From NCBI GenBank assembly GCA_032718475.1, contig JAUCBJ010009100.1, positions 1 to 64,000 of the forward strand: a stretch of 64,000 nt of DNA. Direction: 5' to 3'. Positions within the stretch are counted from its first letter, which is position 1; every line of letters starts with the position of its first letter. This document shows positions 1 through 58,888 of the stretch, piece after piece. Below the pieces are notes generated by a model that was not told where the DNA came from, did no database searches, and was given only the letters and a program-made list of their open reading frames with translations. Source of the stretch: Nemertoderma westbladi (lineage: Eukaryota; Animalia; Xenacoelomorpha). Both the position numbers and the translations under genes were made by a program.

Positions 1-2
1 AA

Positions 3-1319
3 GGAGTCGGCAAATCCCTGACGACGCTCGCGTTCCTTGATAACGGGTCTGACGGAACCATCATCGACCGGGATTTCCTCGAGCAACTCGGCCTAGAATA
101 TGAACCTTGTAAACGGCCCATACAAACCATCACCGATAACAGAGAGGTAGAGTCTGGGGAGGTGCAACTCCAGATGGAAGGAGTAATGAAGGGCTACGAA
201 ACGGTTAAGCTAACCATCAAGAATGCCTTGGTACACACAGACCTCCGAGTGCGGTTCCGACAATCAGCCGAGTACGCCCCCCTCATACAATTGGACCGAG
301 ACAATGTAGATCTGAGGTGTCCGCAGTTGGACGTAAACCGCATCACCCTACTGATCGGACTTGATACACCGGAATTACACATACCAACCGGAGATGTCGC
401 CCGATCCATAAAGAAGGATGACGGCTTTTACGCTGAACGAACAATAATGGGATGGACCCTCTGCGGCATCAAGGAAGAAACTACTGACACCTATACATAC
501 CTTCCTAAATGTCAGATTAAAGAAAATGTAACATCCGTGGGTTATTGCTCAGCTACAGATCTGGACGAGGATTTTTTCCTTGAAACCGAGAGAACCCAGC
601 GGGAGATGACCGGATGCTTTAATGTGGAGACCCGAGAGTTTGCCGAGAAGGATGAGAATCCGTCCGAGGAAGATCAATATTGTACCAACATTTTTGATCA
701 GGCCACGTTCAAAGACGGACATTGGCGCGTGCCCATGCTTTGGTGGCTAAGAAGGTTGTTGATGATAATAATGATGTTGATAACATTGACACCATTAACG
801 GGAGAGCATGGACTAATCTGCCGTAATACCCGGATGGCGAACGCCTCAGTTGAGTCCCTCACTCCTAACCACCTACTAGGGAGACCCAAAACCCACGTTC
901 TCCCAGAGACCATGTTCCCGGTTCCCAACGAGATCGCGAGACATACAAATTGGAAGAAGGCCCAAGCATTGGCAGCGCATTGGTGGAGAATCTGGGCCCA
1001 GGAGTACCTCATAACCCTCCGGACCAGGAGGAAATGGAACAACACCTACCGGAACGTCGCAGTTGGCGACATGGTACTAGTAAAAGAAGATCTCAAAGAC
1101 CGCGTTCACTGGCCTGTGGCGTGGGTCGTGACCATACACCCAAGCAAAGACGGACTTGCGAGGACTGTGACGATACGAACGACATCGGGCCACTACCAAC
1201 GCACTATCCAGAGGCTGTGCCTTCTTGAAGGCAATGATAGCGGTGACTCTACGAGAGGTGATAAGTTCCCTACTCAAGATCCTGCTGCAGACATCGGTGA
1301 CAATGATAAATGCGTTTGA
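3..1319 (+). pseudogene. pol: BEL pol remnant: protease fused in frame to the post-integrase tail; RT, RNase H and integrase core missing
   Basis: DGHWRVPMLW matches DGHYEIGLLW of BEL-3, just before RT. After ~100 nt of filler comes SVESLTPNHLL, matching DSLEALTPVHFL of BEL-2, which lies after the integrase core. Confidence 0.85.
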
Positions 1320-1613
1320 ACCCTTCTTATCCTGTTGACAAACTCTTTTAAACTGTGATTTATCGACGATGAAAATGGACCCCCCTTAAACCAACTGTAA
1401 CCACGCAATGGTATTTGTGTTTCCTCGTGTGTTATGTGGAGTCCAGCGTCACCCTGCAGATGTTTCGACTGACGCAGGGTCGTTTATGCATTGTTTACCC
1501 TGATTTTGGTCATCGGGACCAACGATATTGGATTATTGGAAATGGTAAAGATTTGAAGTGGAATTCATTGTATCCATTGTAGTATGTTATGTTGTCCGTT
1601 GCGTGCGCAGTTC

Positions 1614-2014
1614 GGGGCGTAGGCGGTGTAACGAGTCCAGCTGTAGATCCCGGATTGCCGCGCAACACCCCCTCTATCCCGTTATTCTGGTGGGTCCATG
1701 GTGCATCCACATGACTTCGACAATAGGGGGTTTTATGTTTCTCAGTCGCGTTATTCTGGTGGGACCGTTGCGTGGATTTTGGGGCGTAGGCGGTGTAACG
1801 AGTCCAGCTGTAGATCCCAGAATGTTGCATAACCCCATCCCACATGACTTCGTCGACTGAGCTTTATGTTGTTGGGAGTGTTATTCTGGTGGGTCCCTGG
1901 TGCATCCACGTGACTTCACTCCCAGCGTCTTCATTGTCCATTACGTGTGCAGTTTGGGGCGTAGGCGGTGTAACGAGTCCAGCTGTAGATCCCGGATTGC
2001 CGCGTAACACCCCT
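1614..2014. repeat. Two interleaved GC-rich motifs, three copies each, between pol and the accessory ORF
   Basis: GGGGCGTAGGCGGTGTAACGAGTCCAGCTGTAGATCCC at ~1614, ~1781 and ~1956. GTTATTCTGGTGGG... at ~1681, ~1750 and ~1879. Confidence 0.85.
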
Positions 2015-2563
2015 TCCATAACGAAAATTTACCAAAGAAGATGATTGAATGTAGTTGGAAATGATGAAAAGACTCAGACAACTCTACTATAAACCGAATG
2101 ATGACGCGTATGCTGATGAAAATGTAATGATGCGCACCCTGGTGCTTCGCTTATAACAATGATGATAGCCGGGGGGCTATAACCCCAATGATGGTGTGGA
2201 AATAAACAAAATTGATAATAAATGGTGGAACTAAATGTGTTGAAATGTGTTGAAATAAATGAAATGAGATGAAATAATAAAGAGAAATGAAAAGAGACAA
2301 AAAAAAGGTATAAAAAGTCTAAAGAAAGGAATTGGAAAAAAGAAAAGGACAAAAAAGTCATAAAAAACTGGTTGGATATTAATGTATAGTTATAGTAACT
2401 GTAAATGCTGAATGTATTAGCAATAAGATGATAGATGTCTATATAGCAATGTTATTAATAAACTGAACTAAAAATAAACTGAATTATTCTGCAATCGCTA
2501 TAGTTTCAGACTTTCTGGACTTATAATTAACTGATCTAATTTGTAACGGATATAATCGTAAAT

Positions 2564-5164
2564 ATGGACCCAAATCACCAAATTATCGGCGAATTACGTA
2601 ACACGATAGATCTACTGGAATATTCGCAACCCGGATCACCTGACTTTGATACAAATTGGAGCACCCTGCTAAATGAGAACGTGCGAGTCGTTAAATTCAC
2701 CGGGCGAGAGGGACCGGATTCCAAGAATCTACGAGCCCTCCGGTTAGCCGATGCTAGTACGAGACTGAAAAGAACTCGGAACGCAAAGGCAACCGGAGGG
2801 GACGAGTCGTCGTTTTGGGAAACATTCCGACAAAGCGTCTACAAATCCCAATGTTTGATCTACGACAACGAGGGAAACGCGACACCCACCTCGAAAGCGA
2901 TTACGTTGGCGAGATGTCAAAGTTTTGTCGACGACAAGAGTACGTACCTCGCCCACTGGGGAAACCTGTCGGAGTGTACGGCAACGCTTCGAGAGGAACG
3001 CATATCGATTATCCAGAACCGCGACGACTACCAGGATAAGTACGGGGCGAAAGAATACGGTCGATCCTTAGTCGTCGTCCTCGGAACCCTGGACGGTTTG
3101 GTACTGGTGTGCCGAATATTCCCGACACCCAGGCAGGAAGTGCAGGCAGCCGGAGCGATCTGGTTGCTACCTCCGGAAATCCAAAAGATCCTCTTCGACT
3201 TCGACGTCATTAAAATCGGGTCGGATATCAAGGCGGACGTCCGGAACGACTACGCGAACGCTCCTTTAGGAAGAAACCGATGAGACGACCTCAACGCCCT
3301 TAGCCATTGCGTCGACACCCAAACGCTATTAGCCTGGTTACGATTCGCCGAGTTCATGCGAGGTTTCCGGGAGGTAAGACCGACAAAATCCGGTATCGGC
3401 TACCTCGCTGTGCTGAATGGTGGCATCGACTTCAAACCCCAGAAATTTCGGGATTATAATAAAATATATGGTGGATACCCGGAATTAGAAATAAAGAGCG
3501 AGAGAGAGGGTCGATGGAAAGACGTTGACCGGAAGTGGACGATACACCAAAGGTGGGAGAATCCCGATCGACGGAACTATATCTACGTCGTTATGGAGTG
3601 CTACACCGTCGCTAAGTTTATCTGTAAGACTCTCGATAACCTCATCAGGGCGGTTCCCCTTTCCTTCGTCGACTACGACTGGAACGAGGTTATAAACCAC
3701 GCGTTCAAAGCGGTCGAGAACATTACACCGGGAGAATCGAAAACGCCCGCCGTTATCGATTCCTGGGACGAGAGCGGACCTTACGACATCCCCACGATTA
3801 CCGAGCTTCTTGGTGTGGAGGAGCCTCTGATTTCCTCGGAAGGGGAAGAAATATGGCTACAGGAGGGCGTTCTATTATCCACCCCGAAGCGACAACTCGA
3901 GCCGGGAGCCGCGTACGGACCGGCCGCCAAACGGGTTGCCTCGGCCGAACCGATGATGAAAGCAGGTGCTTACACCCCATGCGGCTCCGGTAGCCCTGCG
4001 AGGGAGGTAGCCACTACATCTGCATTGAGCGACTTCGGCGACATATGCCAACGGTTATCCCCGTATCCCTTCCCGGGTGGCGAAGACTGGTCATCGGAGA
4101 TTCCGAGTACCAGCAACCAACGGACCCGCTCAGCGATACTGGTCGAGAAGGGTCCCAGCGATGCGCCGACCCCCGACGATCTCCTCGGTATCCCTCCGTC
4201 AAAAACCCCGGCACCTCTTCGCCGACCAGCGGTGGCTACTACACCCTCCATTCCTCAGGACCCTATGCGACTAACCCGTTGGTACGCCGAGCAAACTGAA
4301 TGGATCCACCGCCAGAAACGGTCGTCCGAGTTGAGAACAGCGGGACACAAAGAAGGTTATCGTAGCGAGGACCTACTACGCAAAAGCCTAGCATTCCGCG
4401 GGCTACCGGCCACCGCGAATATTCAGAAGAGCGACCGATGACTCGAATATTACGTCGGCATCCCGATTCCGATATTCCCCGGTCGAGAGATGCAATTGGA
4501 GGTTTGCAGCAACTGCGGTTCGGAGCAGTGCCCACGCGGTAGAAGGAATCGGGTTACCGATTCGTGCCTCCAGCTCATCGGGATACTCTATTGCCCATAC
4601 TGTGCGACATCGGGCCACGACGTTTCCGTCTGTCCAATCCTATACAACCTCTGCACCACGTGCGGTTTCCGTGGGCATTCCTCTAGCCCCCGCTGCTATA
4701 TCAAATGTCCCACTAAAGACGTAACTGCTATGGGAAATTTGGTTATGTTCGAAACCTACGCGAACAACCACGTGAAGACTAAAGTGAGGAGAAACGCTCG
4801 GAATATCGCGCAGGAGATGGCGTGCGGGTATTTCTCCTTCCCGGAACGCCTCCACACGTCGGCCACGCTACCTTTCCATTACGTGGATCTGCTACTGAGC
4901 GCCGGATTATTCGGTCCTTTCGAAGTCATTAGACGATTATACTCGTATAAAGAGGAGTTTGGTGACGGAGAGTGGTTCCTAGAGGCACGCAAGTCCGAGT
5001 TGGAAAGACGAACCGACATGATCCCGATGCCATCGAAAGGAAGAGCCGCCAGGAGACAAGCCGAAGCGTTGCTCACGATGGATGTTGACGCTCCTCTACC
5101 AGCCATAGCGATCGATGAGAGTCGACGGGCGAAGAGACGAAAGGCGTATCAGAGAAAGACATAG
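2564..5164 (+). pseudogene. Accessory gene (~866 codons, two in-frame TGA): DEDDy-type (WRN/Mut-7/EXD-like) 3'-5' exonuclease, Pro/Ser linker, CCHC zinc knuckles
   Basis: ORFs 2564-3283, 3356-4441 and 4490-5164 share one frame and are separated only by TGA at 3281 and 4439. ExoI-like LIYDNEG; ExoII-like LPPEIQKILFDFDVIKIGSDIKADV; CVDTQ; ExoIII-like W...YIYVVMEC. C-terminus has CPYCATSGHDVSVC and CTTCGFRGHSSSPRC. Confidence 0.72.
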
Positions 5165-5650
5165 TGGACCGGGATATTCCAGGAACATTTATTGAACATT
5201 TATTTTTATACACATATATATCTATAAACTCTAGGCCAAATTAATTATGACTATGCAATATTAAATTTGGGTTTTTTATATTGGGAATGACCTACGCAAA
5301 CTCAATCTACCGATAGACCTCACGAAGGTCATTGGGGGGGACTGTTCGCGGTATTTCAACTTTTCATAACGCGAGTTTAATATTTTTTGTATTTATTTAA
5401 AATTGATTATTCCGATATTACTACTGGGTGCGGGACCATGGGTTTTGGGCACATTCAATAAACTGGGGGCGATTTATGGGCGAACTTTGGGGCAACTTAC
5501 AGGGTACGGGAATAATTTCATAGTTATAAGGGCCAGGGGTGGGAGGCAAAGTTAAGCAGTATTCAGGTTAGCCTGAGTACTATTAGGCCCTGGCCAACTT
5601 CCTGCTGCCTGTAGGGGTGGATTTGGTAATGCGCCAGGCCTAAAGGACAA

Positions 5651-6665
5651 GGACTGCCCTTAGCGGTCCCTGGCCAACAGCAGTTATTACGAGACTGAAA
5701 AGAACTCGGAACGCTGACTGCTTGTGTCAGGGATTCGCGACGGGAAACGACAGCCCCCTTAGCTAAGCCGTACTGGTTCTCGATGACCGATCCCTTCGGG
5801 GTTCGCGAGGGTTGGGACGGACATGCGAAAGGGTGGCCGACTAACGACTGCCCCCTGAGCTAAGCCGTACTGGTTCTTGATGACCGATCCCTTCGGGGTT
5901 CGCGAGGGGTGGGACGGACATGCGAAAGGGCTGGCCAAGATGGGTTTGACGAGGACTGCCCTTAGCGGTCTCTGGTCAACGGCAGCTATTACGAGACTGA
6001 AAAGAACTCGGAACGCTGACTGCTTGTGTCAGGGATTCGCGACGGGCAACGACAGCCCCCTTACCTAAGCCGTACTGGTTCTCGATGACCGATCCCTTCG
6101 GGGTTCGCGAGGGGTGGGACGGACATGCGAAAGGGCGGCCGACTTACAGAGGAAGGGTTTAACGAGGACTGCCCTTAGCGGTCTCTGGTCAACAGCAGTT
6201 ATTACGAGCCTGAAAAGGACATCGGAACGCCGGCTGCTTGTACCAGGGATTTGCGACGGGAACCGACGACAGACCCCTGAGCTAAGCCGTACTGGTTCTC
6301 GATGATCGTTCCCTTTGGGGTTCGTGAGGGGTTTGACGGACATGCGACGGGGTCGAAAGACAAAGGACTGGACGCTACTGGCCTACCGACTGTTCGGAGC
6401 AGTTTCTCGGCTGCCGAAGCGACTACGAGCCTGAATAAGGACTCGGAAAGCCTAGGTGGTCGAGTCTCTGCGATGAACTGACGGACCCTTAGCTAAGCCG
6501 TACTGGTTCTCGATGATCGAACCCTTCGGGGTTCGGGAGGGGTGGGACGGATGCGCGAACGGGTCCACTGACACGACAGACTCCTAGCCAAGCCGTGCTG
6601 GTTCTCGATGATTGATCCCTTCGGGGTTCGGGAGGGGTGGAACGGACACGCGACAGGGTCGACCG
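5651..6665 (+). ncRNA. Array of two alternating structured RNA modules in the LTR (A x4, B x6)
   Basis: Module A (~5651, 5953, 6165, degenerate ~6395) is a rod hairpin with a GAAA loop. Module B (~5763, 5860, 6065, 6282, 6493, 6588) is a hairpin with a C(UUCG)G loop. Substitutions between copies preserve pairing. Confidence 0.6.
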
Positions 6666-6697
6666 ACACCGACACTACGGCACTAAGACCAGGACTG

Positions 6698-6749
6698 GGG
6701 AACATTAGGTAGGCTAAAATCTGGGGAACATTGGGTAGGCTAAAATCTG
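6698..6749. repeat. Tandem duplication GGGAACATT(A/G)GGTAGGCTAAAATCTG
   Basis: Two adjacent near-identical copies. Confidence 0.8.
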
Positions 6750-7055
6750 AGCGAACAGTGGGTAATTAAATAATATACTGTAGGGACTTATATTGTCGTG
6801 TATAATTATTGTGAATATTTGGTGTATATTGATTTGGGGAAGCCCAAAATTATTCTCAATCAGGTTTCAACTGTAGGAAGTTACATTAAAGAGTATATCC
6901 AACCAATGCGACTTTTCCTCAACCGCAATCCTGCATTTAAGAAATTCCTCCTTCTCCAAATTCAATATCCGGTGACTGGCCGGGACTCTGTGGTCTGTAA
7001 AGTCACGTATCCAGCATCGGCGTTTTTCCCCCCTGGTGTAGGGATAACGGCAACA

Positions 7056-10000
7056 TATAGTAAATATATTAGTTAGATATAGTAAATCTATTAGTTAGAT
7101 ATGGTAAATCTATGAGTTAGATATAGTAAATCTAAGAGTTAGATATAGTAAATCTATGAGTTAGATATAGTAAATCTATGAGTTAGATATAGTAAATGTA
7201 TTAGTTAGATATAGTAAATCTATAAGTTAGATATAGTAAATCTATGAGTTAGATATAGTAAATCTATTAGTTAGATATAGTAAATCTATTAGTTAGATAT
7301 GGTAAATCTATGAGTTAGATATAGTAAATCTAAGAGTTAGATATAGTAAATCTATGAGTTAGATATAGTAAATCTAAGAGTTAGATATAGTAAATCTATG
7401 AGTTAGATATAGTAAATCTATGAGTTAGATATAGTAAATCTATGAGTTAGATATAGTAAATCTATTAGTTAGATATAGTAAATCTATGAGTTAGATATAG
7501 TAAATCTAAGAGTTAGATATAGTAAATCTATGAGTTAAATATAGTAAATCTGTTAGTTAGATATAGTAAATCTATTAGTTAGATATAGTAAATCTAAGAG
7601 TTAGATATAGTAAATCTAAGAGTTAGATATAGTAAATCTAAGAGTTAGATATAGTAAATCTATGAGTTAGATATAGTAAATCTAAGAGTTAGATATAGTA
7701 AATCTATGAGTTAGATATTGTAAATCTAAGAGTTAGATATAGTAAATCTATGAGTTAGATATAGTAAATCTATGAGTTAGATATAGTAAATATATTAGTT
7801 AGATATAGTAAATCTATTAGTTATATATGGTAAATCTATGAGTTAGATATAGTAAATCTAAGAGTTAGATATAGTAAATCTATGACTTAGATATAGTAAA
7901 TCTATGAGTTAGATATAGTAAATCTATCAGTTAGATATAGTAAATCTAAGAGTTAGATATAGCAAATCTATGAGTTAGATATAGTAAATCTATTAGTTAG
8001 ATATAGTAAATCTAAGAGTTAGATATAGTAAATCTATGAGTTAGATCTAGTAAATCTATGAGTTAGATATAGTAAATCTATGAGTTAGATATAGTAAATC
8101 TATGAGTTAGATATAGTAAATCTATTAGTTAGATATAGTAAATCTAAGAGTTAGATATAGCAAATCTATGAGTTAGATATAGTAAATCTATTAGTTAGAT
8201 ATAGTAAATCTATGAGTTAGATATAGTAAATCTATTAGTTAGATATAGTAAATCTAAGAGTTAGATATAGCAAATCTATGAGTTAGATATAGTAAATCTA
8301 TTAGTTAGATATAGTAAATCTAAGAGTTAGATATAGCAAATCTATGAGTTAGATATAGTAAATCTATTAGTTAGATATAGTAAATCTATGAGTTAGATAT
8401 AGTAAATCTATGAGTTAGATATAGTAAATCTATGAGTTAGATATAGTAAATCTATGAGTTAGATATAGTAAATCTATTAGTTAGATATAGTAAATCTATG
8501 AGTTAGATATAGTAAATCTATGAGTTAGATATAGTAAATCTATGAGTTAGATATAGTAAATCTATGAGTTAGATATAGTAAATCTATGAGTTAGATATAG
8601 TAAATCTATGAGTTAGATATAGTAAATCTATTAGTTAGATATAGTAAATCTAAGAGTTAGATATAGCAAATCTATGAGTTAGATATAGTAAATCTATTAG
8701 TTAGATATAGTAAATCTAAGAGTTAGATATAGCAAATCTATGAGTTAGATATAGTAAATCTATTAGTTAGATATAGTAAATCTATGAGTTAGATATAGTA
8801 AATCTATGAGTTAGATATAGTAAATCTATGAGTTAGATATAGTAAATCTATGAGTTAGATATAGTAAATCTATTAGTTAGATATAGTAAATCTATGAGTT
8901 AGATATAGTAAATCTATGAGTTAGATATAGTAAATCTATGAGTTAGATATAGTAAATCTATGAGTTAGATATAGTAAATCTATGAGTTAGATATAGTAAA
9001 TCTATGAGTTAGATATAGTAAATCTATTAGTTAGATATAGTAAATCTAAGAGTTAGATATAGCAAATCTATGAGTTAGATATAGTAAATCTATGAGTTAG
9101 ATATAGTAAATCTATTAGTTAGATATAGTAAATCTATTAGTTAGATATGGTAAATCTATGAGTTAGATATAGTAAATCTAAGAGTTAGATATAGTAAATC
9201 TATGAGTTAGATATAGTAAATCTAAGAGTTAGATATAGTAAATCTATGAGTTAGATATAGTAAATCTATGAGTTAGATATAGTAAATCTATGAGTTAGAT
9301 ATAGTAAATCTATTAGTTAGATATAGTAAATCTATGAGTTAGATATAGTAAATCTAAGAGTTAGATATAGTAAATCTATGAGTTAAATATAGTAAATCTG
9401 TTAGTTAGATATAGTAAATCTATTAGTTAGATATAGTAAATCTAAGAGTTAGATATAGTAAATCTAAGAGTTAGATATAGTAAATCTAAGAGTTAGATAT
9501 AGTAAATCTATGAGTTAGATATAGTAAATCTAAGAGTTAGATATAGTAAATCTATGAGTTAGATATTGTAAATCTAAGAGTTAGATATAGTAAATCTATG
9601 AGTTAGATATAGTAAATCTATGAGTTAGATATAGTAAATATATTAGTTAGATATAGTAAATCTATTAGTTATATATGGTAAATCTATGAGTTAGATATAG
9701 TAAATCTAAGAGTTAGATATAGTAAATCTATGACTTAGATATAGTAAATCTATGAGTTAGATATAGTAAATCTATCAGTTAGATATAGTAAATCTAAGAG
9801 TTAGATATAGCAAATCTATGAGTTAGATATAGTAAATCTATTAGTTAGATATAGTAAATCTAAGAGTTAGATATAGTAAATCTATGAGTTAGATCTAGTA
9901 AATCTATGAGTTAGATATAGTAAATCTATGAGTTAGATATAGTAAATCTATGAGTTAGATATAGTAAATCTATTAGTTAGATATAGTAAATCTAAGAGTT

Positions 10001-13053: not shown

Positions 13054-13153
13054 NNNNNNNNNNNNNNNNNNNNNNNNNNNNNNNNNNNNNNNNNNNNNNN
13101 NNNNNNNNNNNNNNNNNNNNNNNNNNNNNNNNNNNNNNNNNNNNNNNNNNNNN
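13054..13153. other. Assembly gap (100 N)
   Basis: Run of N. Confidence 1.
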
Positions 13154-14263
13154 TTGACGAGGACTGCCCTTAGCGGTCTCTGGTCAACGGCAGCTATTAC
13201 GAGACTGAAAAGAACTCGGAACGCTGACTGCTTGTGTCAGGGATTCGCGACGGGCAACGACAGCCCCCTTACCTAAGCCGTACTGGTTCTCGATGACCGA
13301 TCCCTTCGGGGTTCGCGAGGGGTGGGACGGACATGCGAAAGGGCGGCCGACTTACAGAGGAAGGGTTTAACGAGGACTGCCCTTAGCGGTCTCTGGTCAA
13401 CAGCAGTTATTACGAGCCTGAAAAGGACATCGGAACGCCGGCTGCTTGTACCAGGGATTTGCGACGGGAACCGACGACAGACCCCTGAGCTAAGCCGTAC
13501 TGGTTCTCGATGATCGTTCCCTTTGGGGTTCGTGAGGGGTTTGACGGACATGCGACGGGGTCGAAAGACAAAGGACTGGACGCTACTGGCCTACCGACTG
13601 TTCGGAGCAGTTTCTCGGCTGCCGAAGCGACTACGAGCCTGAATAAGGACTCGGAAAGCCTAGGTGGTCGAGTCTCTGCGATGAACTGACGGACCCTTAG
13701 CTAAGCCGTACTGGTTCTCGATGATCGAACCCTTCGGGGTTCGGGAGGGGTGGGACGGATGCGCGAACGGGTCCACTGACACGACAGACTCCTAGCCAAG
13801 CCGTGCTGGTTCTCGATGATTGATCCCTTCGGGGTTCGGGAGGGGTGGAACGGACACGCGACAGGGTCGACCGACACCGACACTACGGCACTAAGACCAG
13901 GACTGGGGAACATTAGGTAGGCTAAAATCTGGGGAACATTGGGTAGGCTAAAATCTGAGCGAACAGTGGGTAATTAAATAATATACTGTAGGGACTTATA
14001 TTGTCGTGTATAATTATTGTGAATATTTGGTGTATATTGATTTGGGGAAGCCCAAAATTATTCTCAATCAGGTTTCAACTGTAGGAAGTTACATTAAAGA
14101 GTATATCCAACCAATGCGACTTTTCCTCAACCGCAATCCTGCATTTAAGAAATTCCTCCTTCTCCAAATTCAATATCCGGTGACTGGCCGGGACTCTGTG
14201 GTCTGTAAAGTCACGTATCCAGCATCGGCGTTTTTCCCCCCTGGTGTAGGGATAACGGCAACA
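13154..14263 (+). repeat. Second copy of the distal BEL-1 LTR (same as 5946-7055), probably an assembly overlap
   Basis: Offset 7208. It starts exactly at the gap edge, and identity continues through satellite variants to ~18831. Confidence 0.9.
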
Positions 14264-30127: not shown

Positions 30128-33100
30128 GAACGAGAAGCTTATAACGACGAGTTAAATGACGTCATTGAGCGTCATAATGCCAAGATTCGGGATGAACATG
30201 CCGTATGATTCTTTACGCAAGAGGCGGTAGAGCCCAATTCCTATGATAAAGCCTTGTCGGTGGAAGAGGAAAGGGCCAAGCAGATCCAAGAGACAACTAC
30301 ATGTTTCCTCAAAGATCAAGGTAGGTATGAAGTCGGTTTACCTTTCCGCAAGAAAGAACCGAAGTTCATCAATAACAGACCTTTGGCGGAAAAAAGAATC
30401 GCGCAACTCCATCGACGCCTTACAGCTAATTCTTCAGCGAAAGCAATGTATCAAACGCAGCTGGAAAAATTTATTAATAAGGGATACGCGGAGAGGGTAC
30501 CGGAAGAAACACCTGTGACTGAAAGAACGTATTATTTAACTCACCATTACGTTCCTAAACCTGGTAAACCAAATGAAGTGAGAGTAGTGTTTGATGGCTC
30601 CGCTCTTTACATGGGTCAATCCCTTAACTCTGAATTGTTACCCGGACCCAACTTACTTCAATCTTTGTTGGGAATTCTTTTAAGATTGAGACAATATTCG
30701 ATTGCTTTCGCCTCCGATATAGAAGGCATGTTCTTACAAGTCAAGGTGTTAGATAGGGATCGAGATAGTCTACGATTTCTGTGGTGGCCCGAAGGAGACC
30801 TCAACCAGAAACCGGTGGAGTACTGGATGACCATCCAGGCCTTTGGGATAATCTCAAGCCCTTCCAACGCCTGTTCGGTAGTGCGTACTACTGCAGAGGA
30901 CAACAGAGAGGCCTTCTCTAAGGAAGTGATCGACAACATCAAGAGAGACATATACATGGACGACAATCTGAAGTCCCTCCCATCAGTTGAGGAAGCCATT
31001 GAGGTCGCTAAGGGAACGGTAGAGTGCTTAAAAAGAGGTGGGTTTCGATTAACCAAATTCACCAGCAACTCCCGTGAGTTTCTGGAGTCGATCCCTGCGG
31101 AAGATCGCGGAGCGAAAGATCTCGATTTGATCAAAGATGATCTGCCAGAAACCAAGACACTCGGCTTGAAATGGGACACAGAGAGAGATATCCTGTTTTT
31201 CCAACTAAAACAGCGAGATAATCCTGTTCGAACCAAACGGATTTGCTTAAGTATACTGAGCACTTATTTCGATCCATTGGGATTTATTAGCCCAGTTATA
31301 TTGATTGCTCGAAGTTTGGTACAACAAATGTGGCTTGAAAACCACTCATGGGACGATCCACTTAAGGGGGAATTACTGAAGCAGTGGATGAAATGGGAAG
31401 ATTCTCTGCCAGCCATCGAGGATTTTATAATTTCCCGTTCATATTTTGGTCATGTTCTCCCTACGTATTCCTATCAACTCCATGTGTTTGGAGACGCCAG
31501 CGATATGGGAATCGGTATAGTAGCCTACCTAAGAGTGGAAACTCCGGATGGAATCAAAGTCGCCTTGGTTACTTCTAAGGCATTAATCAACAACAAGTTG
31601 AAAGTTCCTCGAGCGGAGTTAAAAGCGGCTCTATACGCTACAGCCATCGGCCGGAATGTAACCGAACAGATTGACTATACATTAGAGAAAACTGTCTATT
31701 GGACCGACGCTTTACTCGTGTTAGAGTATATAACCAATGAAGTCTGTCAGTTCAGCGTCTTCGTTACCAACAGGGTAGCCATCATACTTAGTCGCACTAC
31801 GATGGACCAATGGAGACATTGCCCCGGAACGATTAACCCAGCAGACATCGCTTCCCGAGGAGCGACTCCAAAGGAATTGGTAAATACTCCCGAATGGTTA
31901 GGAGGACCCGACTTTCTCTACAGAGAAGAAGAAGAATGGCCTCCCCATCTCACAACAGCAGAGATCAGACAGGCCAAGGGAGCGGAGAAAGTTAAACCCA
32001 AAACTCGAGCGAGTAAATCGAAGTTGTTTAAACCTGCGGTTGATCTATCGGTATTATTTACTTCCGGAGAGGATGCTTTGGATCAGAAACCCACCGCCAC
32101 GACTAAAGAAGTCTTGGAAATCCGTGACAAGGATTGGAAATCTGGAATACCAGATATTTCGTAAGGACTCTCACCTCTCTTGCAGAGAGCGATACGTCAC
32201 TACAGTTCCTGGAATCGGCTCTGTAAAGCTGTCACCTATCTGAAACGATGTTTTCATCATCGTTACTCCGGGACAAAGACCAATAGTGATGATGCTCCAT
32301 CAACATCTGCACGAGTCCATGTTGTTAAAGATCTTCCTAAATACAAGATATCCGACAGGTTTCTAAAGGAGAAGATCAGTTACCAGGAGCATGATGAAAC
32401 CAACAAACAGATGCTGAGACTCCTACAATGCTATGAGGATTCCGATAAGTATTTCCTGTTATTAAGAAATCCACAGATGCGCTTAAGGGATCGCTTCTCT
32501 AGTACCATGATAGATGGGTTAATACGTGTTGGAGGTCGGCTTACCAACACCCCGTTATCCTTTGACACTAAGTTTCCCATACTCATTAGGAATCTTGATA
32601 TACAAATCAAGATGATTGTAGATGTTCATAGCAAACTGTATCATGCTGGTAGAGAACGAGTTCTGAGCGAAATTCGAACTCGCTACTATTTTTATAAACC
32701 CCGTAGGGCTCTGAATCAAGTTCTTAGGAACTGCATACCCTGTAGGAAAGCATTCAGTAGGCCTTTGACACAGCGAGAGGCAGAATTACCTAGGGAAAGA
32801 GTAAGCTTCTATGAACCACCCTTTACTAATATCGGTGTGGATTTATTTGGCCCTATTGAAGTATATCGTGCCCGGACTATAGTCAAGAGATGGTGTGTCA
32901 TCTTCGTTTGTATGACTTGTAGAGCTATCCATCTCGATATGGTAAACGATCTATCCACCAACAGCTTCGTGTTGAGTTTACGACGACAGATCGCTCGCTT
33001 CGGAACCAGTAACACGATGAGATCGGATAAGGGAACGAACTTCATTGGCGCCAACAACGAAATTCAAGCTTACGTAAAGGACTGGAACAAAAGACAGGTG

Positions 33101-33838
33101 GACGATCAGCTAAGGATAACAGCGTCTAGCTGGACCTTCAACGCCACCGACGCCCCTTGGTGGGGAGGAAGTTGGGAGAGATTGATTAGGAGCGTGAAGA
33201 CTGCGTTCCACTTTATTGTGCCTTGTCGCGCTTATCTCACCGACGAACTATTGCGGACGTTAATGGAGGAAATCGCCGCCTATCTCAACGAAAGACCGCT
33301 TATGCCAGTCTCTTCAAATCCGGATTCCCTGGAAGCGCTAACACCCGTGCACTTTCTACTGAAGAAACCCGTAGCCATGCTCCCACGATCGGAGATCACA
33401 GACGGAGACGAGTACTGCCGTCGAACCTGGCAACTTATGCAGTTGCTATCCCGTTGTTTCGCTGACCATTTCGAGAAACATTACCTGCCCACTCTACAAC
33501 TTCGAACTAAGTGGTTTGCGCAGCAAGAAAACGTCAGCGCTGGAGACATGGTGCTTATTGTGGACCCCGATCTCCCACGTAAGCGATGGCAAACAGGACG
33601 TATCATCGAGACTTATATCTCGAGCGATGGTTTGGTGCGATCAGTAGAGCTCGTCGTCATGCGGCGGAACTTTAAGAAACCAGGGATAGTCTTTGAGACT
33701 CAACAGCTCAACCGCCCAGTGGGTCGTTTATGTTTACTGGAAAGAGACAGAGAGCTCTCCGGAAACTATGGAAGGCAAGAAACTCTTCCCACGACCACTT
33801 CCCTAATCCAACCGACATCTAGGGACTCCCCAACTTAA
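30128..33838 (+). pseudogene. pol: BEL-2 pol (RT, RNase H, integrase, post-integrase tail) with in-frame stops
   Basis: RT VRVVFDGS...DIYMDD; RNase H VFGDAS...PRAEL...WTD; integrase GVDLFGP, RSDKGTNF, GGSWE. ORFs 30254-32164 and 32180-33838 are in one frame split by TAA at 32162. The frame extends upstream past a TGA to ~30128. Confidence 0.93.
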
Positions 33839-38476: not shown

Positions 38477-41400
38477 TTAATCACGCTTGCTGCGTCTTAC
38501 ATAAGTCCAAACGCCATCACCGTCGATGTCATCATGATCATTGTCGCTGAATTGCTTCTGATCGTGATCTATACTATTACCACCTTGTTGGACTACTTCC
38601 TCCTTGTTCTCTGGTTCTCTGTGGTTTTCTGGTTCTCCATCGCTAAGAAGGCGAAGGAAGCGGCGGTTTCTCCAGTATTCTCGTCCATTGTCAGCAGCAA
38701 TTAGGTAACTGCGGTTCCTTGAACAATCCTTGATAATAGTACCTATCAGGTCCCATTTCTTCGTCTGGTGGTGCTGAATTCTGACTCGGTCTCCTTGTGT
38801 GAAATAATTGGTTATTTCACGAGTACCTCTGTCATACAATTCCTTTGAGATTCTCTGATTATGTGCGGCTTTAACATCGGCAAATTGTATATCATGTTCA
38901 TCTACATTTTTGAATGATGTTGCAGACGTTGGCATCTTACTTCTCAACTGCCTTCCTATGACCCGCTGAGCCAGGCTGAGACCATCGGCACGGGGTGTGT
39001 TTCTGTATTCCAGTAACGCGTTTGCGAATTCATCTGTCGAAATGTCGCCCTTTGGACATACCTTTACAACCAAATCTTTGATACATCTTACTGCCGCTTC
39101 TGCGTATCCATTGGATTCATGGTTGTATGGTGAAGATGGTTGATGGTTAATTCCCCATTCTTGACAAAAGTTTTTAAATTCAGTTCTAAATTGTGGACCC
39201 CCATCCGTTGTGAGCCTATCAGGAATGCCCATATTTGTAAACCAAACTCTGAATTTCTTCTTAGTAGTATAGGTGTCAACACCACCGTGCCCACATTCGA
39301 AAACATCAGGCCATCCTGAGTATTTATCGGTGATAACTAGATATTCTTTAGCAGCATGGGCGAAGAAATCAGCCGCTATTGATTCACCAGGCCTTGTGGG
39401 TCGCACATCAGCCATCATAGGTTCCTTCCGATTACTAGCTTTATGGACCTCGCACTCATTACACTCCGAAACTAATGTCCCTATGTCATTGCTGATCCCA
39501 GGCCAAAAGACGCACATCCGTGCCCTTCTGAGGGCTCTGTCACGCCCTTGGTGTGCTGCATGCAATTCTTTTAAAACAACTTTACGCATGGCTACGGGTA
39601 TAACAATGCGATTCTCTGCATACATGACCACATTGTCAACAATTGATAGCCCATAACGAAAATTCCAATATGGTCTTAACATTTCACTAACCATGTGTTT
39701 GGTGGGTGGAAATCCTGTAGCGATTAGCTTACGAAGTTCAAAATAAGCTGGGTCACGATTTGCCTCTTGTTTAACCTTTTCCCAGCCTAAACCCTTGGTG
39801 TTTGTCGTGGGTGGAGAGACATTTACTGTATTAAGGCTGTGTGCTGCGCTTAACAATGAGGTGTGAGCGAACTCTTCTATTTCGGTCTCACCTTGTTCAT
39901 CTTCTGCCGTTGGATGTGAAACTGGGAACCTAGAAAATGTGTCTACTACTGTATGTGTAATTCCTTGTCTCCATATAGCAGAAGGTCTGTAGCAGGCAAG
40001 CTTTTCTTTTAAACGAATGATTCGTGGTGTCTCGATTTGGTCTAATGTTTTTCCATTGATGATGGATATGAGAGGTTTATGGTCTACAATGAGCTCAAAA
40101 TGAGCCCCCTGAAGAAATAATTTGCTCTTGTGAGTGGCCCATACTACGCCAAGGAGTTCTATTTCAGTAGCTGAGTATCTCGATTCAGTTGTCGTCAATG
40201 TTCTAGAACCGCACTGCAGTAGCTTCCATATACCTGCTTTGTCTTGTTGCCATAGTGCAAATCCTAGACCTTTTGATTGGGCTGCATCGGTTTCTAACCG
40301 TAGTGGAGCATCAGGTATGAAGTTAGTGAGCACTCTAGGGGACATAAGGATCTCTATTATTGATTTAAAAGCCTTTCTTTGGTCTGCTTCCCATATAAAC
40401 CGGGTCTTATGCGAGGTTAGAGCCATAAGAGGTTTTGCTGCTTGTGCCAAGTCTGGTGTGAAGGCCTGAAATTGTTGGATAAGGCCACAGAATGATCTCA
40501 GATCAGTTGTTGACTTCGGCTCTGGGAAGTTTCTGAGTGCACTTGTCAGGGAAGGGTTAACACTATAACCATTTTGGTTGACAACATAACCGCACCATTC
40601 TACTTCAGGTTGCCCAAACATGAATTTGCGCTTACTAAGCGTTATACCATTGTCATTAAAACGTTGTAAGATAGAACGCACCCTCCGTTCATGATCATCT
40701 ATGTTGGTGTCATATACGATGACATCTTCAACCACCTTCTTAAAATTATCAACGCCTTCCATGGCAGTGTCGCCTCTGCTATCGTGCTCATCACCGGCGC
40801 TAGGCAATCCCATGGGGTTTCTGAGAAATTGTTCTCTGCCCCATGGTGTGATGAAAGTAGTCATATCTCGTGCACTATCAGTAAGCGGAACTTGCCAATA
40901 CCCATGTCGTGAATCCATTGTAGTAAAAATAGTCATACCATTAGGAATTTTGGCTACTTCATTTTTGGGTACTTTCGATGGGTGCACTGGCCTTTTTACA
41001 TACTTATTCAAAGCTGTGAAATCTACTGTTATTCTTGGCTCTGATGAGTTCTTTTTAGGTGTTACCACCATTGGATGTATCCAATTGGTGACCTCTGTTA
41101 TTGGTACCTTCCTCGTGATGCCGTTTCTCCTCATCTTTTCCAGCATTTCTTTCACCTTATCCTCCCAATGGATGGGAACGTTATATGGTTTAAATTTTTT
41201 TACTGGAATTGCCCCATCTTCTAATATAATATCCATAGGCGGCCCACTCATGGGTCTCAGTGGACCTTCATCCGCGAAAACGTCTGGGAAATCATGTATG
41301 AGTGCTTCCTTCATAGCAGTAACCTTTCGTTTCATTGCATCATCTTTACTGTTATTATTGGAATCTGACTCCGTGGCTGTCTTCACATTATTGCCTGACG

Positions 41401-43096
41401 CCATAGGTATCAATGACAACGTAGACACACTTGCTTTACAACTGCCATCACATCTGGCTTGTGGCCATCCTTGAGGTATGAGGCCTAGAATAACGCACCC
41501 TTCATAACTTAATATTGGATTATTTGTATAATCCAGCACATGTGCCTTGCATTGGTATTCTTTCATACCAAGTCTCAGTGTAAGCTTAACCTTTCCATGA
41601 GACTCTAACGGCTTTGCATCTGGGCCGATAAGCGTATCGCTATCGGGAATCATCATAAGCCCCCCAGCATCATTATTTCCCAATTCGGCGAGATCTTGAA
41701 GGCTGATAGCATTGCGTTTTGCTCCTGTGTCTGCTAACCATTGTCTGCTACCACTGCGTCTGCTATTTTCGGTATTGGTTGTGTATAGTGTGATGAGCTT
41801 AGTCTCATTATTATCGTAAACAGTAGATATTTCGATGCTTTTAACGTCAATACTGTTAACCGGTTGCCTACTGGCCAGTTTTTTATTGACACGACACATC
41901 TTTATAAGATGGCCCCTTTTGCCACAGTTAAAACAATCAACATTTTTTGCGAAACATTTATCTTTACCATGTGGACGTCCGCAATTCTGACATGAAATGC
42001 CAGGAGAGTCCCTTACTATCTGCTGCATTTGTGATTTGTATGCCGATCTTTTGACTGCACATAACAATTCCCCATTCACTTTTTCGGTATCTGAAATAGA
42101 CATAGAAGCTACTGGATTATATAACACGCCTGGCTTCTCTAGCGCCATATCTACAGACTGACTAGCCTCGAGTGCTCTGGTTGTCGCGAGAACATCTGCC
42201 ATTGTTAGACAGTTCATTGGTGTCTTGAGCACCTCTTGGCGAAGTTTAGACTCTCTTAGGCCTGCCATGAATTGTGTTAATAGGCGATCATGTCGATGTA
42301 TGTCAGCTTTATCACATATTTCTTTTACATCGCACGCCCTATCTAGAGCTTGAAGCGCCATGTAAAACTGTGTTATGTTTTCACCTGGCTGTTGCTTTCT
42401 CTGCACGAAAGCAACTCTATCTAATAACTCATGTCGTTCACCACGTAGATAATTACGCATGCATTTCAGGATATAATTGGTGTCGTCACGTGGCCCTATC
42501 ACAATTATACCTTCAGCCCATAGCTTTGTCCACTCAGGGTCCAAAGCCGACCTTAAGACTCCCCTCCGGGCATCTATGTCTGCATCATTTAACCTGGTGC
42601 CTGCGGCGAAGTCATGCCATCGCTGTTGCCAGTCCTCGAAATCGGTCAATGTGAGACCTGCTGGTGATCTTAGGACAGGGGTGTCCATCTGGCGGGGTCT
42701 TGGCTTACCCATTACTTGTGCGGCACTCGTCATTGGTAGGCGAGCCTTTAGCTCTTCCCGCTTGTTACCGATGTACTTCTGGAAGTATATTGTTAGTTTT
42801 TGTAAGTTTGTTACATACCTTTCAGTGGCGTCATCCTCTTGTTCATCAAGACCGACGATTTCGTCATGACATGCGGCATACCTTTCAACAGCCTTCAAGA
42901 AAAGGTTAAGTGCAGTATCTAGCGCTTCCACTTCAACATTTCCTTGTCTGTCGTGGTCTAAGTCTTCAAAGGCAGTAATCTCAGACCGTAATACAGCTTC
43001 TGTTCGTGTACAGTTACTTTTGTACCCTCTTCTACTGGCCTTTAACCTTCTCAGCTCATCTTCTGTGCCGTCAGTTGACATGATTACTAATGCCAC
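38477..43096 (-). CDS. gag-pol: Gag-Pol polyprotein, 1539 aa (gag with Cys/His knuckles, PR, RT, RNase H, integrase)
   Basis: CFNCGKRGHLIKMC; LADTGA; PRITVDF...DSRHGYWQ...PMGL...KVVEDVIV; LETDA...EIEL...VDHKPL; AADFF/TDGGPQF/SNGYAE. No stops. Confidence 0.95.
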   Translation of the reverse strand: MALVIMSTDGTEDELRRLKASRRGYKSNCTRTEAVLRSEITAFEDLDHDRQGNVEVEALDTALNLFLKAVERYAACHDEIVGLDEQEDDATERYVTNLQKLTIYFQKYIGNKREELKARLPMTSAAQVMGKPRPRQMDTPVLRSPAGLTLTDFEDWQQRWHDFAAGTRLNDADIDARRGVLRSALDPEWTKLWAEGIIVIGPRDDTNYILKCMRNYLRGERHELLDRVAFVQRKQQPGENITQFYMALQALDRACDVKEICDKADIHRHDRLLTQFMAGLRESKLRQEVLKTPMNCLTMADVLATTRALEASQSVDMALEKPGVLYNPVASMSISDTEKVNGELLCAVKRSAYKSQMQQIVRDSPGISCQNCGRPHGKDKCFAKNVDCFNCGKRGHLIKMCRVNKKLASRQPVNSIDVKSIEISTVYDNNETKLITLYTTNTENSRRSGSRQWLADTGAKRNAISLQDLAELGNNDAGGLMMIPDSDTLIGPDAKPLESHGKVKLTLRLGMKEYQCKAHVLDYTNNPILSYEGCVILGLIPQGWPQARCDGSCKASVSTLSLIPMASGNNVKTATESDSNNNSKDDAMKRKVTAMKEALIHDFPDVFADEGPLRPMSGPPMDIILEDGAIPVKKFKPYNVPIHWEDKVKEMLEKMRRNGITRKVPITEVTNWIHPMVVTPKKNSSEPRITVDFTALNKYVKRPVHPSKVPKNEVAKIPNGMTIFTTMDSRHGYWQVPLTDSARDMTTFITPWGREQFLRNPMGLPSAGDEHDSRGDTAMEGVDNFKKVVEDVIVYDTNIDDHERRVRSILQRFNDNGITLSKRKFMFGQPEVEWCGYVVNQNGYSVNPSLTSALRNFPEPKSTTDLRSFCGLIQQFQAFTPDLAQAAKPLMALTSHKTRFIWEADQRKAFKSIIEILMSPRVLTNFIPDAPLRLETDAAQSKGLGFALWQQDKAGIWKLLQCGSRTLTTTESRYSATEIELLGVVWATHKSKLFLQGAHFELIVDHKPLISIINGKTLDQIETPRIIRLKEKLACYRPSAIWRQGITHTVVDTFSRFPVSHPTAEDEQGETEIEEFAHTSLLSAAHSLNTVNVSPPTTNTKGLGWEKVKQEANRDPAYFELRKLIATGFPPTKHMVSEMLRPYWNFRYGLSIVDNVVMYAENRIVIPVAMRKVVLKELHAAHQGRDRALRRARMCVFWPGISNDIGTLVSECNECEVHKASNRKEPMMADVRPTRPGESIAADFFAHAAKEYLVITDKYSGWPDVFECGHGGVDTYTTKKKFRVWFTNMGIPDRLTTDGGPQFRTEFKNFCQEWGINHQPSSPYNHESNGYAEAAVRCIKDLVVKVCPKGDISTDEFANALLEYRNTPRADGLSLAQRVIGRQLRSKMPTSATSFKNVDEHDIQFADVKAAHNQRISKELYDRGTREITNYFTQGDRVRIQHHQTKKWDLIGTIIKDCSRNRSYLIAADNGREYWRNRRFLRLLSDGEPENHREPENKEEVVQQGGNSIDHDQKQFSDNDHDDIDGDGVWTYVRRSKRD

Positions 43097-43189
43097 ATAA
43101 GTAACACAGATTTATTTTAACATTTCAAACTTACATTAATAATGAAAATTATTGAAAAATTCAAACTTATATAAAATTGCTTAAACACA

Positions 43190-43418: not shown

Positions 43419-43775
43419 ATATGGTAAATCTATGAGTTAGATATAGTAAATCTAAGAGTTAGATATAGTAAATCTATGAGTTAGATATAGTAAATCTATG
43501 AGTTAGATATAGTAAATCTATTAGTTAGATAGAGTAAATCTATTAGTTACATATAGTAAATCTAAGAGTTAGATATAGTAAATCTATTAGTTAGATATAG
43601 TAAATCTATTAGTTAGATATGGTAAATCTATGAGTTAGATATAGTAAATCTAAGAGTTAGATATAGTAAATCTATGAGTTAGATATAGTAAATCTATGAG
43701 TTAGATATAGTAAATCTATTAGTTACATATAGTAAATCTATGAGTTAGATATAGCAAATCTATGAGTTAGATATA
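43419..43775. repeat. 22-bp satellite, terminal ~16 monomers
   Basis: Resumes in register after the Gypsy-A TSD. Confidence 0.95.
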
Positions 43776-44319: not shown

Positions 44320-44400
44320 TTTTTCTTTTAGTGCCAATAAGCGGGGATTGCTTATATCTTCAATATTCCACTATCAGGTAAACCAAGACGCATAACCTGT

Positions 44401-47400
44401 CATGCAATAGCTGATACTGGGGCCCAATCCGCGGTGGCTGGTATGCGTCTAGTTAAATCTCTTGGTCTAACAAAATCGGATTTGATCCCTGTGACACAGT
44501 CTTTGGTAGCAGCCAATGGAACAAAATTAAAGATTTATGGTGGGTTATTTTTAAAAGTCAATTGTCAGACAAAGCAAGGAGTTTCTAGGAGCACTAAACT
44601 ACTTGTATACATTCAGGGCAACTGCGACCAATTTTTCCTTAGCCGAAAAGCTTGTGAATGTCTAGGAATTATATCGACTGATTCCCCCCAAATAAATTCA
44701 ATAACTAATCAATGCTTCAACAATGATAGCAATAGTGCAATTGCCCCATGTGGCTGTCTTAGACGATCCGCACCACCAATTTCACCCTCAATGCCACCCT
44801 TACCCCTGATACCGGAGAATAGAGATGCCATAGAGAAATGGCTGTTGAACTACTATGCATCAAGCACCTTTAACTAAGCATCAGGCCTTGCCTACTATGT
44901 CAGGACCACCACTCAGTCTAATGATTGATGTAAATGCAAAACCACACGCTATTCACACACCGATACCTGTTCCTATCCACTGGCAGAAGGCTGTCAAGGA
45001 AGGACTTGATAGGGATGTTCGTTTGGGTGTCATCGAGCCAGTCCCTTGGGGGACTCCTACATCCTGGTGCAGTCGGATGGTAACTGTAGCCAAAAAGGAT
45101 GGTACGCCAAGGAGAACAGTTGATTTACAACACCTAAATGCAGCCTCAGTTCGCCAAACTCACCATACACCATCGCCGTTTCATCAAGCCATGTCTGTAC
45201 CACATCATACTAAGAAGACAGTGTGTGATGCATGGAATGGCTATCATAGTGTTGCTATCAAGCCAGAAGATAGACATTTCACAACATTTATCACCCCTTG
45301 GGGGCGTTACCAGTATCGAACCACCCCTCAAGGCTTCATAGCCGCTGGTGATGGCTATACACGCAAGTATGACGAAATTATTACTGATATAAGCAACAAA
45401 ACGAAATGTGTCGACGATGTATTACTTTGGTCGAACAATATAAAGCAAAGTTTCCAACAAACGTGTGAGTTTCTATGTCGTTGTGCAGATAATGGCATTA
45501 TACTAAATCCAAACAAATTCCAATTCGCAAAGAGTGAAGTTGAGTTTGCAGGCTTTGTCATAACAGATGATAGTGTAAAACCAAGCAAGAAATATCTGCA
45601 AGCCATTCTAGACTTTCCCACACCAACAAATATCACGGGTATACGCTCTTGGTTTGGACTTGTTAATCAGGTATCATATGCGCTTTCCATGACTGATAAA
45701 ATGCTGCCATTTCGCGAACTGCTGCAAACTGGAGTAAAATTCTACTGGGATAACCAACTACAAATGCTTTTTGATGAATCCAAACAGACAATCGTGAAAG
45801 CAGTAGAAGAAGGTGTCAGAATATTTGACCCGACTAGAAAGACTTGTCTTACAACAGATTGGTGTAAAATTGGCACAGGATTCTTCCTTACCCAGAAACA
45901 CTGTACATGCCTAATGACATCACCTGACTGTTGCTCCAATGGTTGGAAACTAGTATTTGCAGGTAGCAAATTCAATAGCCCAGCTGAATCTAACTATTCT
46001 CCAGTAGAAGGAGAAGCGTTGGCAGTAGTTAAAGGGTTGAATAAGACCCGATACTTTACTCTGGGTATCTCACACCTGATAGTAGCTTCAGATCATAAGC
46101 CATTGCTGAAGATCCTTGGTGATAAAAATATGGAAGATATAAGCAATCCCCGCTTATTGGCACTAAAAGAAAAAACATTGGGGTATAAATTTACCATTAT
46201 ATATCTACCTGGCAAGACTATACGTGGTCCTGATGCGGCATCCCGGTATCCATCAGGTGAGTTACCATCATCTGATACGATTAATCCCATAGTAGCCGAA
46301 GTTGCTAGTGATGATGATTGTTATGAAACTGAATTATCCACAATGACGAGTGCTGTTTGTTCATTGTACTCGTTAGGTACTATTAAATCTGTTACATGGA
46401 ATCGTGTCCGTGAAGCCACTATGAGTGATGATGTAATGTTGGACCTGTTGAAGATAATCCAATGTGGCTTTCCTGATAACCGACATAGTGTACCAGCACA
46501 TTTATTGGAATACTTTCCCTACCGCGAGAATCTCTCGACCGTTGACGATAGTGTCATTATCTACAACAACAGAGTAGTCATACCACCATTGCTAAGAACT
46601 GAGGTTTTAGAAGCTCTACATTCAGCACATCAAGGTGTAACATCAATGGTGTCACGCGCTACCTCATCTGTATTCTGGCCAGGCATTACTCCGGATATTA
46701 CTAATATGCGCTCACACTGTTCTGCATGTAATCAAATGGCCCCGTCACAACCCAATCAACCACCAATGCCGATGGTTTACCCCGAATACCCATTTCAATG
46801 CATCTGCGCTGACTATGCTCATATCGAGGGATCAAACTATCTCATCATTGTTGATCGATACTCTGGATGGCCCCAAATTAGTAAAGCAGCCGCAGGAGAA
46901 GGTGCGAAACAACTAGTCGGAGAACTAAAGCAACATTGTGCCACATTTGGAATCCCAGAGGAGGCAGCAACAGATGGAGGACCTGAGTTCCAATCTGCTG
47001 AAACTTTAAAATTTATGAAAAACTGGGGAATACAGCACCGATTGTCTTCAGTTGCATTTCCCCATTCCAATGCGAGGGCTGAAATTGGTGTCAAAACAAT
47101 GAGGCGTCTCTTAACTGACAATATAGGACCCAATGGAAACCTTAATACAGATAACTTCCTTCGAGCACTACTCCAATATCGAAACACACCAGACCAAGAC
47201 ACAAAGATATCACCAGCAGTAGCGATATTTTTGCGACAAATTCGGGACTTCACACCCGTTCTTCCATCGAAATATAAGCCATGCAAAGAATGGCAAGATA
47301 CTCTAATATGTCGCGAGGAAGCTCTTCGTAAACGCCATAACATAGCACATGAACGACTAGAAGAACATACACATCGACTTCCACCATTAAAAGTTGGTGA

Positions 47401-58693: not shown

Positions 58694-58888
58694 TTAGAAA
58701 CTACCGGTACCTATTCACATTCAGCAGTCAGGCGGTATTCCAGTCTGCCAGTATTCGATAACTACAGATTTTGGCTGATTTGCATGCAAAAGTTTTGCAC
58801 ATTTTTGCAAAATTTTTTCTTTTCGGATTTTGCAAATTTTTTCGGATATTTAATTTCCTGAAATTTCTCTACTATTCAACAGTCAGAT

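Follow-up and report, generated by a model that had tools for sequence, protein, structure and literature searches.

Given the env-like character of the extra ORFs known from the BEL elements roo, Tas and Cer, the third ORF (ORF3) of a BEL/Pao element of Nemertoderma westbladi, in which a reading made from the sequence alone had seen a DnaQ-like exonuclease joined to zinc knuckles, raises the question of whether such a gene is a genuine part of the element and what it would do there. The window analyzed is the whole stretch of 64,000 nucleotides at the start of contig JAUCBJ010009100.1, and all features of the element described below lie on its forward strand.

Architecture of the element and its third ORF

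A BEL/Pao pol remnant occupies positions 3–1319 and is recognized by Pfam and by tblastn to intact BEL pols, in which the protease region is joined to the integrase C-terminus. Pfam finds DUF5641 in this frame (E 9e-28), Asp_protease_2 below cut-off (E 1.2e-4), and no reverse transcriptase (RT), RNase H or integrase core; the pol of the window copy is internally deleted. A spacer of 1.24 kb separates pol from ORF3 and contains, between 1596 and 2014, three hairpin repeats of ~75 nt (1596–1672, 1765–1838 and 1938–2014) that are candidate cis RNA elements. The three copies share an invariant 38-nt core, 4 of 25 pairs are changed on both sides among them, and their folding z-scores are −3.0, −0.2 and −2.0; an Rfam search of window positions 1–7100 gave no match. 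An A-rich purine tract lies 3′ of the hairpins at about 2230–2370.

ORF3 itself (2564–5164) runs from the ATG at 2564 to the TAG at 5162–5164 as a single frame of 866 codons, which bears out the one sense frame of about that length that the sequence-only reading had placed between pol and the polypurine tract (PPT); two in-frame TGA stops, at codons 240 and 626, interrupt it and there is no frameshift. The predicted protein is composed of an N-terminal DnaQ-like (DEDDy-type) exonuclease domain (2822–3700), assigned by profile, by a register test and by the fold of the homologue P0002; a Pro/Ser-rich low-complexity linker (3701–4480), which the alignment shows to be unconserved between families; and a zinc module (4505–4900), delimited by alignment and by a profile that matches Lin28. 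The motifs singled out earlier were recovered where they had been placed, with YDNE at 2861–2872, the segment from LPPEIQ (3167) to KIGSDIKAD (3212–3238), VDTQ at 3311 and YVVME at 3584–3598, followed by CPYCATSGH at 4592 and CTTCGFRGH at 4652. Behind ORF3 stand a PPT (5334–5341), identified by sequence, and a 3′ LTR of 1713 bp (5343–7055) of the TG...CA type (TGTT...AACA), with internal ~97/205-bp repeats.

Window copy and sister copies

The stretch is present in five of the seven sequencing runs listed, of which four represent one organism in three studies and one may be the source sample; run X5, which amounts to a small share from a different organism, was left aside. Contigs of three DNA runs cover all 30 bins of positions 1–7100, and in these runs the depth over ORF3 is of the same order as that over the integrase end and the spacer, depth not being equivalent to copy number. 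At both stop positions another base makes up 98.5–100% of the depth in both runs compared, and because nearly all of the sister depth carries another base, the stops belong to the window copy alone. Majority differences were tallied from 40 of 905 rows and from all 34 of a second listing; third codon positions account for 17 of the 21 differences listed for the nuclease region, stop site excluded (p 1e-5), and for 11 of the 21 listed for the linker. ORF3 genuinely belongs to the element and is present in multiple copies, and the window copy, with pol deleted and two stops, is dead while its family is not.

Linkage to BEL/Pao elements and selection

A metagenome scan seeded with two zinc-module peptides, and with no pol sequence, gave nine loci (L002–L010) from 245 candidates. 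A BEL integrase lies directly upstream of ORF3 in six of the nine and no gypsy/copia pol was seen, a gypsy pol query matching none of the nine, so that the proposed linkage to BEL pol, for which intact copies had been sought, holds in several lineages: four BEL lineages are represented, including that of the window, with pol pieces about 28–37% identical. Peptidase_A17, RT and DUF5641 lie in open frames in L005, L007 and L008, which have the full BEL/Pao pol domain set ending in DUF5641, the window copy retaining protease and DUF5641 only; PF05380 is given as the BEL/Pao RNase H in the available text of PMC3985635.

L005 and L006 belong to one family (99% alike) and show, in order, an LTR end, a PBS-like TGG, gag-pol, an open ORF3 and an LTR; their gag-pol is a single open frame of ~2270 codons with DUF1759, protease, RT, Peptidase_A17, integrase and DUF5641. 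L007 and L008, whose pols are 88% identical, carry gag and pol; fewer than 100 bases beyond pol comes an open ORF3 (934 codons in L007, 922 in L008), followed by a PPT and TGTT. In L004 and L009 an integrase tail directly precedes a broken ORF3; in L002, of the same lineage, ORF3 is open and the 8.5 kb upstream of it contain no pol. Neither L003 nor L010 has sequence ahead of the ORF, and PPT and TGTT follow ORF3 in L003 and L004 as they do in L007 and L008.

Several observations on these loci stand apart from the linkage. That L002 might be a retroposed, spliced ORF3 message was considered and found unsupported, the flanking LTR-like pieces being only 73–76% alike. The L003 protein (P0004) combines a truncated exonuclease with a tandem pair of zinc modules, and at L004:6860–7640 there is another ORF3 fragment, which is decayed and belongs to a related family. 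In L007 (3132–3137) and L008 (1577–1582), gag and pol share a reading frame interrupted by a lone TGA with CTA behind it; TGA-CTA is a known stop-readthrough context, and gag-pol readthrough is likely in both.

Between L007 and L008, dN/dS is 0.15 for ORF3, 0.08 for the zinc module and 0.08 for pol, so the check on selection that had been called for indicates purifying selection on ORF3; for the exonuclease, dN is 0.23 and synonymous sites are saturated. ORF3 diverges faster than pol (64% versus 88% identity), and host-facing accessory proteins tend to diverge faster. The pS of this pair is also higher in ORF3 than in pol (0.70 versus 0.52); given this excess, ORF3 may have been swapped between families by recombination.

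These data bear on two alternatives that we regard as very improbable, namely that ORF3 arose by a single, neutral capture of part of a host gene or that it encodes an env-like protein. The broken window copy would fit the former, and BEL context is known from the scanned loci, not from the closest relatives P0002, P0003, P0006, P0009 and P0010; yet four BEL lineages have this gene at the same place, its dN/dS is well below 1 and the stops are copy-specific. BEL linkage in several lineages, together with selection, marks ORF3 as an accessory gene of long standing that is under selection in some BEL elements, and not as a one-off capture, and the natural intact copies in L006, L007 and L008 are available for assay.

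Exonuclease fold

On its own, the window protein has no meaningful match in Pfam or PDB sequence searches, and modelled from its single sequence it folds badly (pLDDT 34). A phmmer search of 1.84 billion representatives returned nine matches, all unnamed or ‘hypothetical’, of which six combine the Cys/His module with an exonuclease-like part at the N-terminus, weak in two cases, and three have the module only. Word-seeded homologue searches yielded none among 5739 candidates and otherwise the query itself only, the homologue P0014 had no match in a PDB sequence search, and none of 602 viral-contig candidates was a homologue; a 35-residue match in viral contig L001 (E 8e-4) was set aside as chance given its prokaryotic-looking context.

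The fold was accordingly approached through P0002, the best phmmer match, which was modelled with a 7-row alignment and is confident in the N-terminal domain only (pLDDT mostly 60–86 in the exonuclease region). The model superposes on the Nibbler EXO domain with Z 14.5 (rmsd 3.6 over 194 residues), on diDNase/NrnC with 14.2, RNase D with 13.7, Rrp6 with 13.2, WRN with 13.1, EXD1 with 12.5, Egalitarian with 11.1 and the Pol I proofreading domains with 12–13.6; the top Foldseek matches are Egalitarian (E 3.5e-7) and EXD2 (E 9e-7). The atlas gives PF01612 at 0.94 for a homologue, and the L008 ORF3 exceeds the PF01612 cut-off (26.1 versus 23.6) where its sister from L007 falls below. A profile of eight relatives built without the window protein matches residues 166–378 of the latter at 61.4 bits, the best of 500 shuffles reaching 4.1. 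Because a homologue folds so and the profile of the relatives matches at this score, the domain of the window protein is assigned, by way of its relatives, to the DnaQ-like fold, in agreement with the exonuclease proposed from the sequence. Neither of the two findings named beforehand as fatal to that proposal, the lack of a DnaQ-like fold and homologues occurring only outside BEL elements, was obtained.

The predicted domain thus resembles Nibbler/Mut-7, EXD2, EXD1, Egalitarian, WRN exo, RNase D and Rrp6 in fold (Z 11–14.5), and it shares with the cellular DEDDy proteins the segment LP..(I/L)..LL.D..(I/V).K.G....D; unlike them it carries the zinc module, which none of them has, and at identities of only 12–19% no single donor stands out. 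The place of ORF3 between integrase and PPT/LTR is that of the env-like ORFs of roo, Tas and Cer, from which it differs in having a predicted soluble nuclease fold and zinc knuckles and no membrane glycoprotein features. Hydropathy peaks range from 1.1 to 2.1 in nine proteins, the highest lying inside the exonuclease core, and by hydropathy and by fold matches, which are to nucleases, no signal peptide, TM anchor or fusion-protein fold was seen. An env-like reading could point to one 19-residue stretch of hydropathy 2.08 (residues 168–186), but in the alignment this stretch falls on a strand in the core of the exonuclease, and no glycoprotein is among the 50 viral fold matches listed. Capture of a host fragment and an env-like identity are already largely refuted.

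The presence of WRN exo and the Pol I proofreading domains among the close folds, and the fact that, to our knowledge, RTs lack proofreading, would suit a protein whose substrate is DNA in the course of reverse transcription or integration, through proofreading in trans or trimming of cDNA or primer ends. We nevertheless consider such a role improbable: ORF3 is separate from Pol, the active site is lost in several members, the fused knuckles point to RNA, and most BEL elements replicate without ORF3. Two of these are in the window, with BEL-like pol frames at 30209–33838 and 49566–56999 and no ORF3-like ORF of at least 150 aa seen after either; gypsy-like pol frames lie at 38477–43111, 44341–48208 and 58862–62104, and together these LTR retrotransposons take up the remainder of the window.

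Active site

In the window protein, ExoI is placed at D101/E103, in register with seven relatives; this is the best window of a position-profile scan, equalled by 10 of 5000 shuffles, and it lies outside the HMM alignment, with an insertion of ~60 residues between YDNE and the next strand. A first MAFFT placement in which ExoI was deleted from the window protein was set aside, since this part of the sequence is crossed by long contigs that show no large gap there, and since YDNE falls into register. ExoII is D225 in KIGSDIKAD, which aligns with the Asp of P0002, P0003, P0010, P0014–16 and P0018. At ExoIII the protein has Y341 and, in place of the last Asp, E345; lacking Y-x3-D, it is filed as a variant.

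Ten exonuclease domains were compared at these positions. Y-x3-E is found in four (the window protein, P0002, P0003 and P0010, 25–34% identical to one another), Y-x3-D in three (P0016, P0017 and P0018) and H-x3-D in two (P0014 and P0015); the ExoIII motif is lost in P0006, P0017 is without the ExoII Asp, and P0006, P0009 and P0004 are degenerate. The complete set D-E-D-YxxxD is present in P0016 and P0018, and D-E-D-HxxxD in P0014 and P0015. Trees of the integrase end, exonuclease and zinc domains are mostly without resolution, the split between a Glu/degenerate group and an Asp group having support of 77/85. The observation that the last Asp appears as Glu was correct; since three distant relatives share the Glu, it is an inherited subfamily trait and no sign of decay. 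By its motifs, the domain is a variant of the DEDDy fold rather than a canonical member, forming with these relatives a D-E-D-E subfamily that may or may not be catalytic.

Zinc module

The zinc module is composed of a degenerate first CxxC cluster, a CX2CX4HX4C knuckle at 4592–4633 and a CX2CX4HX5C knuckle from 4652, followed by a conserved helical segment, FE-x2-A...G...R...GFF. The C-terminal CCHC knuckles reported earlier therefore reduce to a single canonical one (residues 677–690), the second having the longer spacing and the first cluster being degenerate. A module profile matches the Lin28 knuckles at E 3e-4 and nucleocapsids at 0.1–2; the best atlas assignment is zf-CCHC at 0.87, a lead only, and in the relatives the knuckle falls below the Pfam cut-off. 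The CX2CX4HX4C spacing is that of the tandem CCHC of Lin28 and retroviral nucleocapsids, from which the module differs by its three Cys clusters and by a conserved helical tail of no named family. It is found in 15 of 15 aligned proteins, a constancy owed in part to the search route, since the module led to most of the relatives.

This constancy, set beside an exonuclease active site that varies or is lost, argues for another possible role, that of an adaptor that binds the transcript of its own element, similar to Egalitarian or EXD1 and with no need of catalysis, which would protect, package or transport the genomic RNA, perhaps through the spacer hairpins. We treat this as a tentative but serious candidate. 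The top Foldseek entries show Egalitarian in complex with stem-loops that serve RNA localisation, among them the I-factor signal, and the three hairpin repeats show some compensatory changes. Besides the bias of the search route, it is weakened by the short pol–ORF3 distance in L007 and L008, which leaves no hairpin spacer, by the full acidic sets of P0016 and P0018 and the HxxxD sets of P0014 and P0015, and by the rank of Egalitarian in the full comparison, only Z 11.1.

Comparison with rotifer ORF3s

The Juno and Vesta clades of rotifer retrotransposons are gypsy-like. DEDDy exonuclease ORF3s with the motif DEED have been described in the bdelloid rotifer Juno/Vesta LTR retrotransposons and in Athena/Terminon retroelements (Rodriguez, Kenefick and Arkhipova 2017, PMC5408684), an account repeated in PMC5718144; in the accessible text of the 2017 paper their activity and role are undemonstrated, and Mag and GPY/F are listed for the rotifer elements, BEL/Pao not being treated. 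The elements studied here are similar to Juno/Vesta, as described in that text, in having after pol a non-env DEDDy-type exonuclease ORF3 without a TM segment. They differ in the host element, which is BEL/Pao (Peptidase_A17, DUF5641), in the motif, D-E-D-D or D-E-D-E versus the rotifer DEED, and in the zinc-knuckle fusion, the same text mentioning only a Cys-His-Cys motif in Vesta2/5 (PMC5408684). The two sets were compared by description, and a likeness at that level does not imply common ancestry.

The architecture had been thought undescribed. This no longer stands for DEDDy ORF3s as such, known from bdelloid rotifers since 2017, and it stands, as far as the accessible part of PMC5408684 goes, for their occurrence in BEL/Pao and for the zinc fusion. 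Neither a BEL exonuclease ORF nor a zinc-knuckle fusion was found in the literature searched, a search that lay outside Repbase reports and subscription papers and in which the phrase ‘BEL Pao’ may miss ‘BEL/Pao’. New here are the DEDDy ORF3 in BEL/Pao, its fusion to an unnamed zinc module and the conserved D-E-D-E subfamily, and with them non-env ORF3s resembling enzymes are known from a second LTR superfamily besides that of the rotifer elements.

Proposed function

Nibbler, Mut-7 and EXD1 act on the 3′ ends of small RNAs. The reading that we prefer, at a probability of roughly 0.4, is that some BEL/Pao elements carry in ORF3 a conserved, non-env third gene, encoding a predicted exonuclease with a zinc module that would trim or hold RNA 3′ ends, most probably on small RNAs of the host's silencing pathways, and so serve in trans as a counter-defence. 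ORF3 would be expressed separately, from its own ATG on a spliced or internal mRNA; a candidate splice acceptor ends at 2509. The substrate would be RNA rather than DNA, as suggested by the closest folds, which are RNA enzymes or binders, and by knuckles like those of Lin28 and nucleocapsid; the zinc-knuckle module would likely bind the RNA and the exonuclease domain trim or hold its 3′ end, with catalysis presumed also in the Glu subfamily. The anti-silencing role is proposed by analogy with Nibbler, Mut-7 and EXD1. Three points favour counter-defence: among animal proteins, the closest folds belong to ones that work on the 3′ ends of small RNAs; four acidic residues are retained in the majority of members; and the divergence of ORF3 outpaces that of pol.

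Against it, the Z-scores do not single out small-RNA enzymes, diDNase/NrnC, RNase D and Pol I proofreading domains lying within 1–2 Z; the catalytic residues vary and three of the nine first matches are module-only, which fits RNA binding as well as a nuclease; and the window protein itself is without a confident model. Rotifer carriers of DEDDy ORF3s, moreover, show neither clear escape from small RNAs nor a gain in copy number in the accessible text of PMC5408684.

We consider it doubtful that ORF3 is a BEL-encoded small-RNA nuclease in the strict sense, in which the zinc module would find Piwi/Argonaute-bound or precursor RNAs for the DEDDy domain to degrade, the lineage would be ancient and widespread and D-E-D-E would be a new active-site variant; if this were true, an animal retrotransposon would carry an enzymatic suppressor of piRNA/siRNA silencing. 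For the wider question of whether retrotransposons of animals encode active counter-defences to silencing by small RNAs, this family is a concrete, testable candidate, and its members with Asp, Glu or His at the active site, or with a dead one, provide built-in comparisons.

Repeats around the window copy

Positions 2753–2784 of ORF3 are ~97% identical over 30–32 nt to an LTR motif repeated at 5685–5714 and 5985–6016, which reflects either a shared cis element or ORF-derived LTR repeats. The LTR adjoins an array of a 22-bp satellite with strong G skew, present in ~930 copies at 7055–27604 and 43419–43775. A second copy of the 3′ part of the LTR, at 13154–14263, is 100% identical over the 855 bases compared, has the same satellite junction and is directly preceded by a gap of 100 N (13054–13153); it is probably an assembly duplication.
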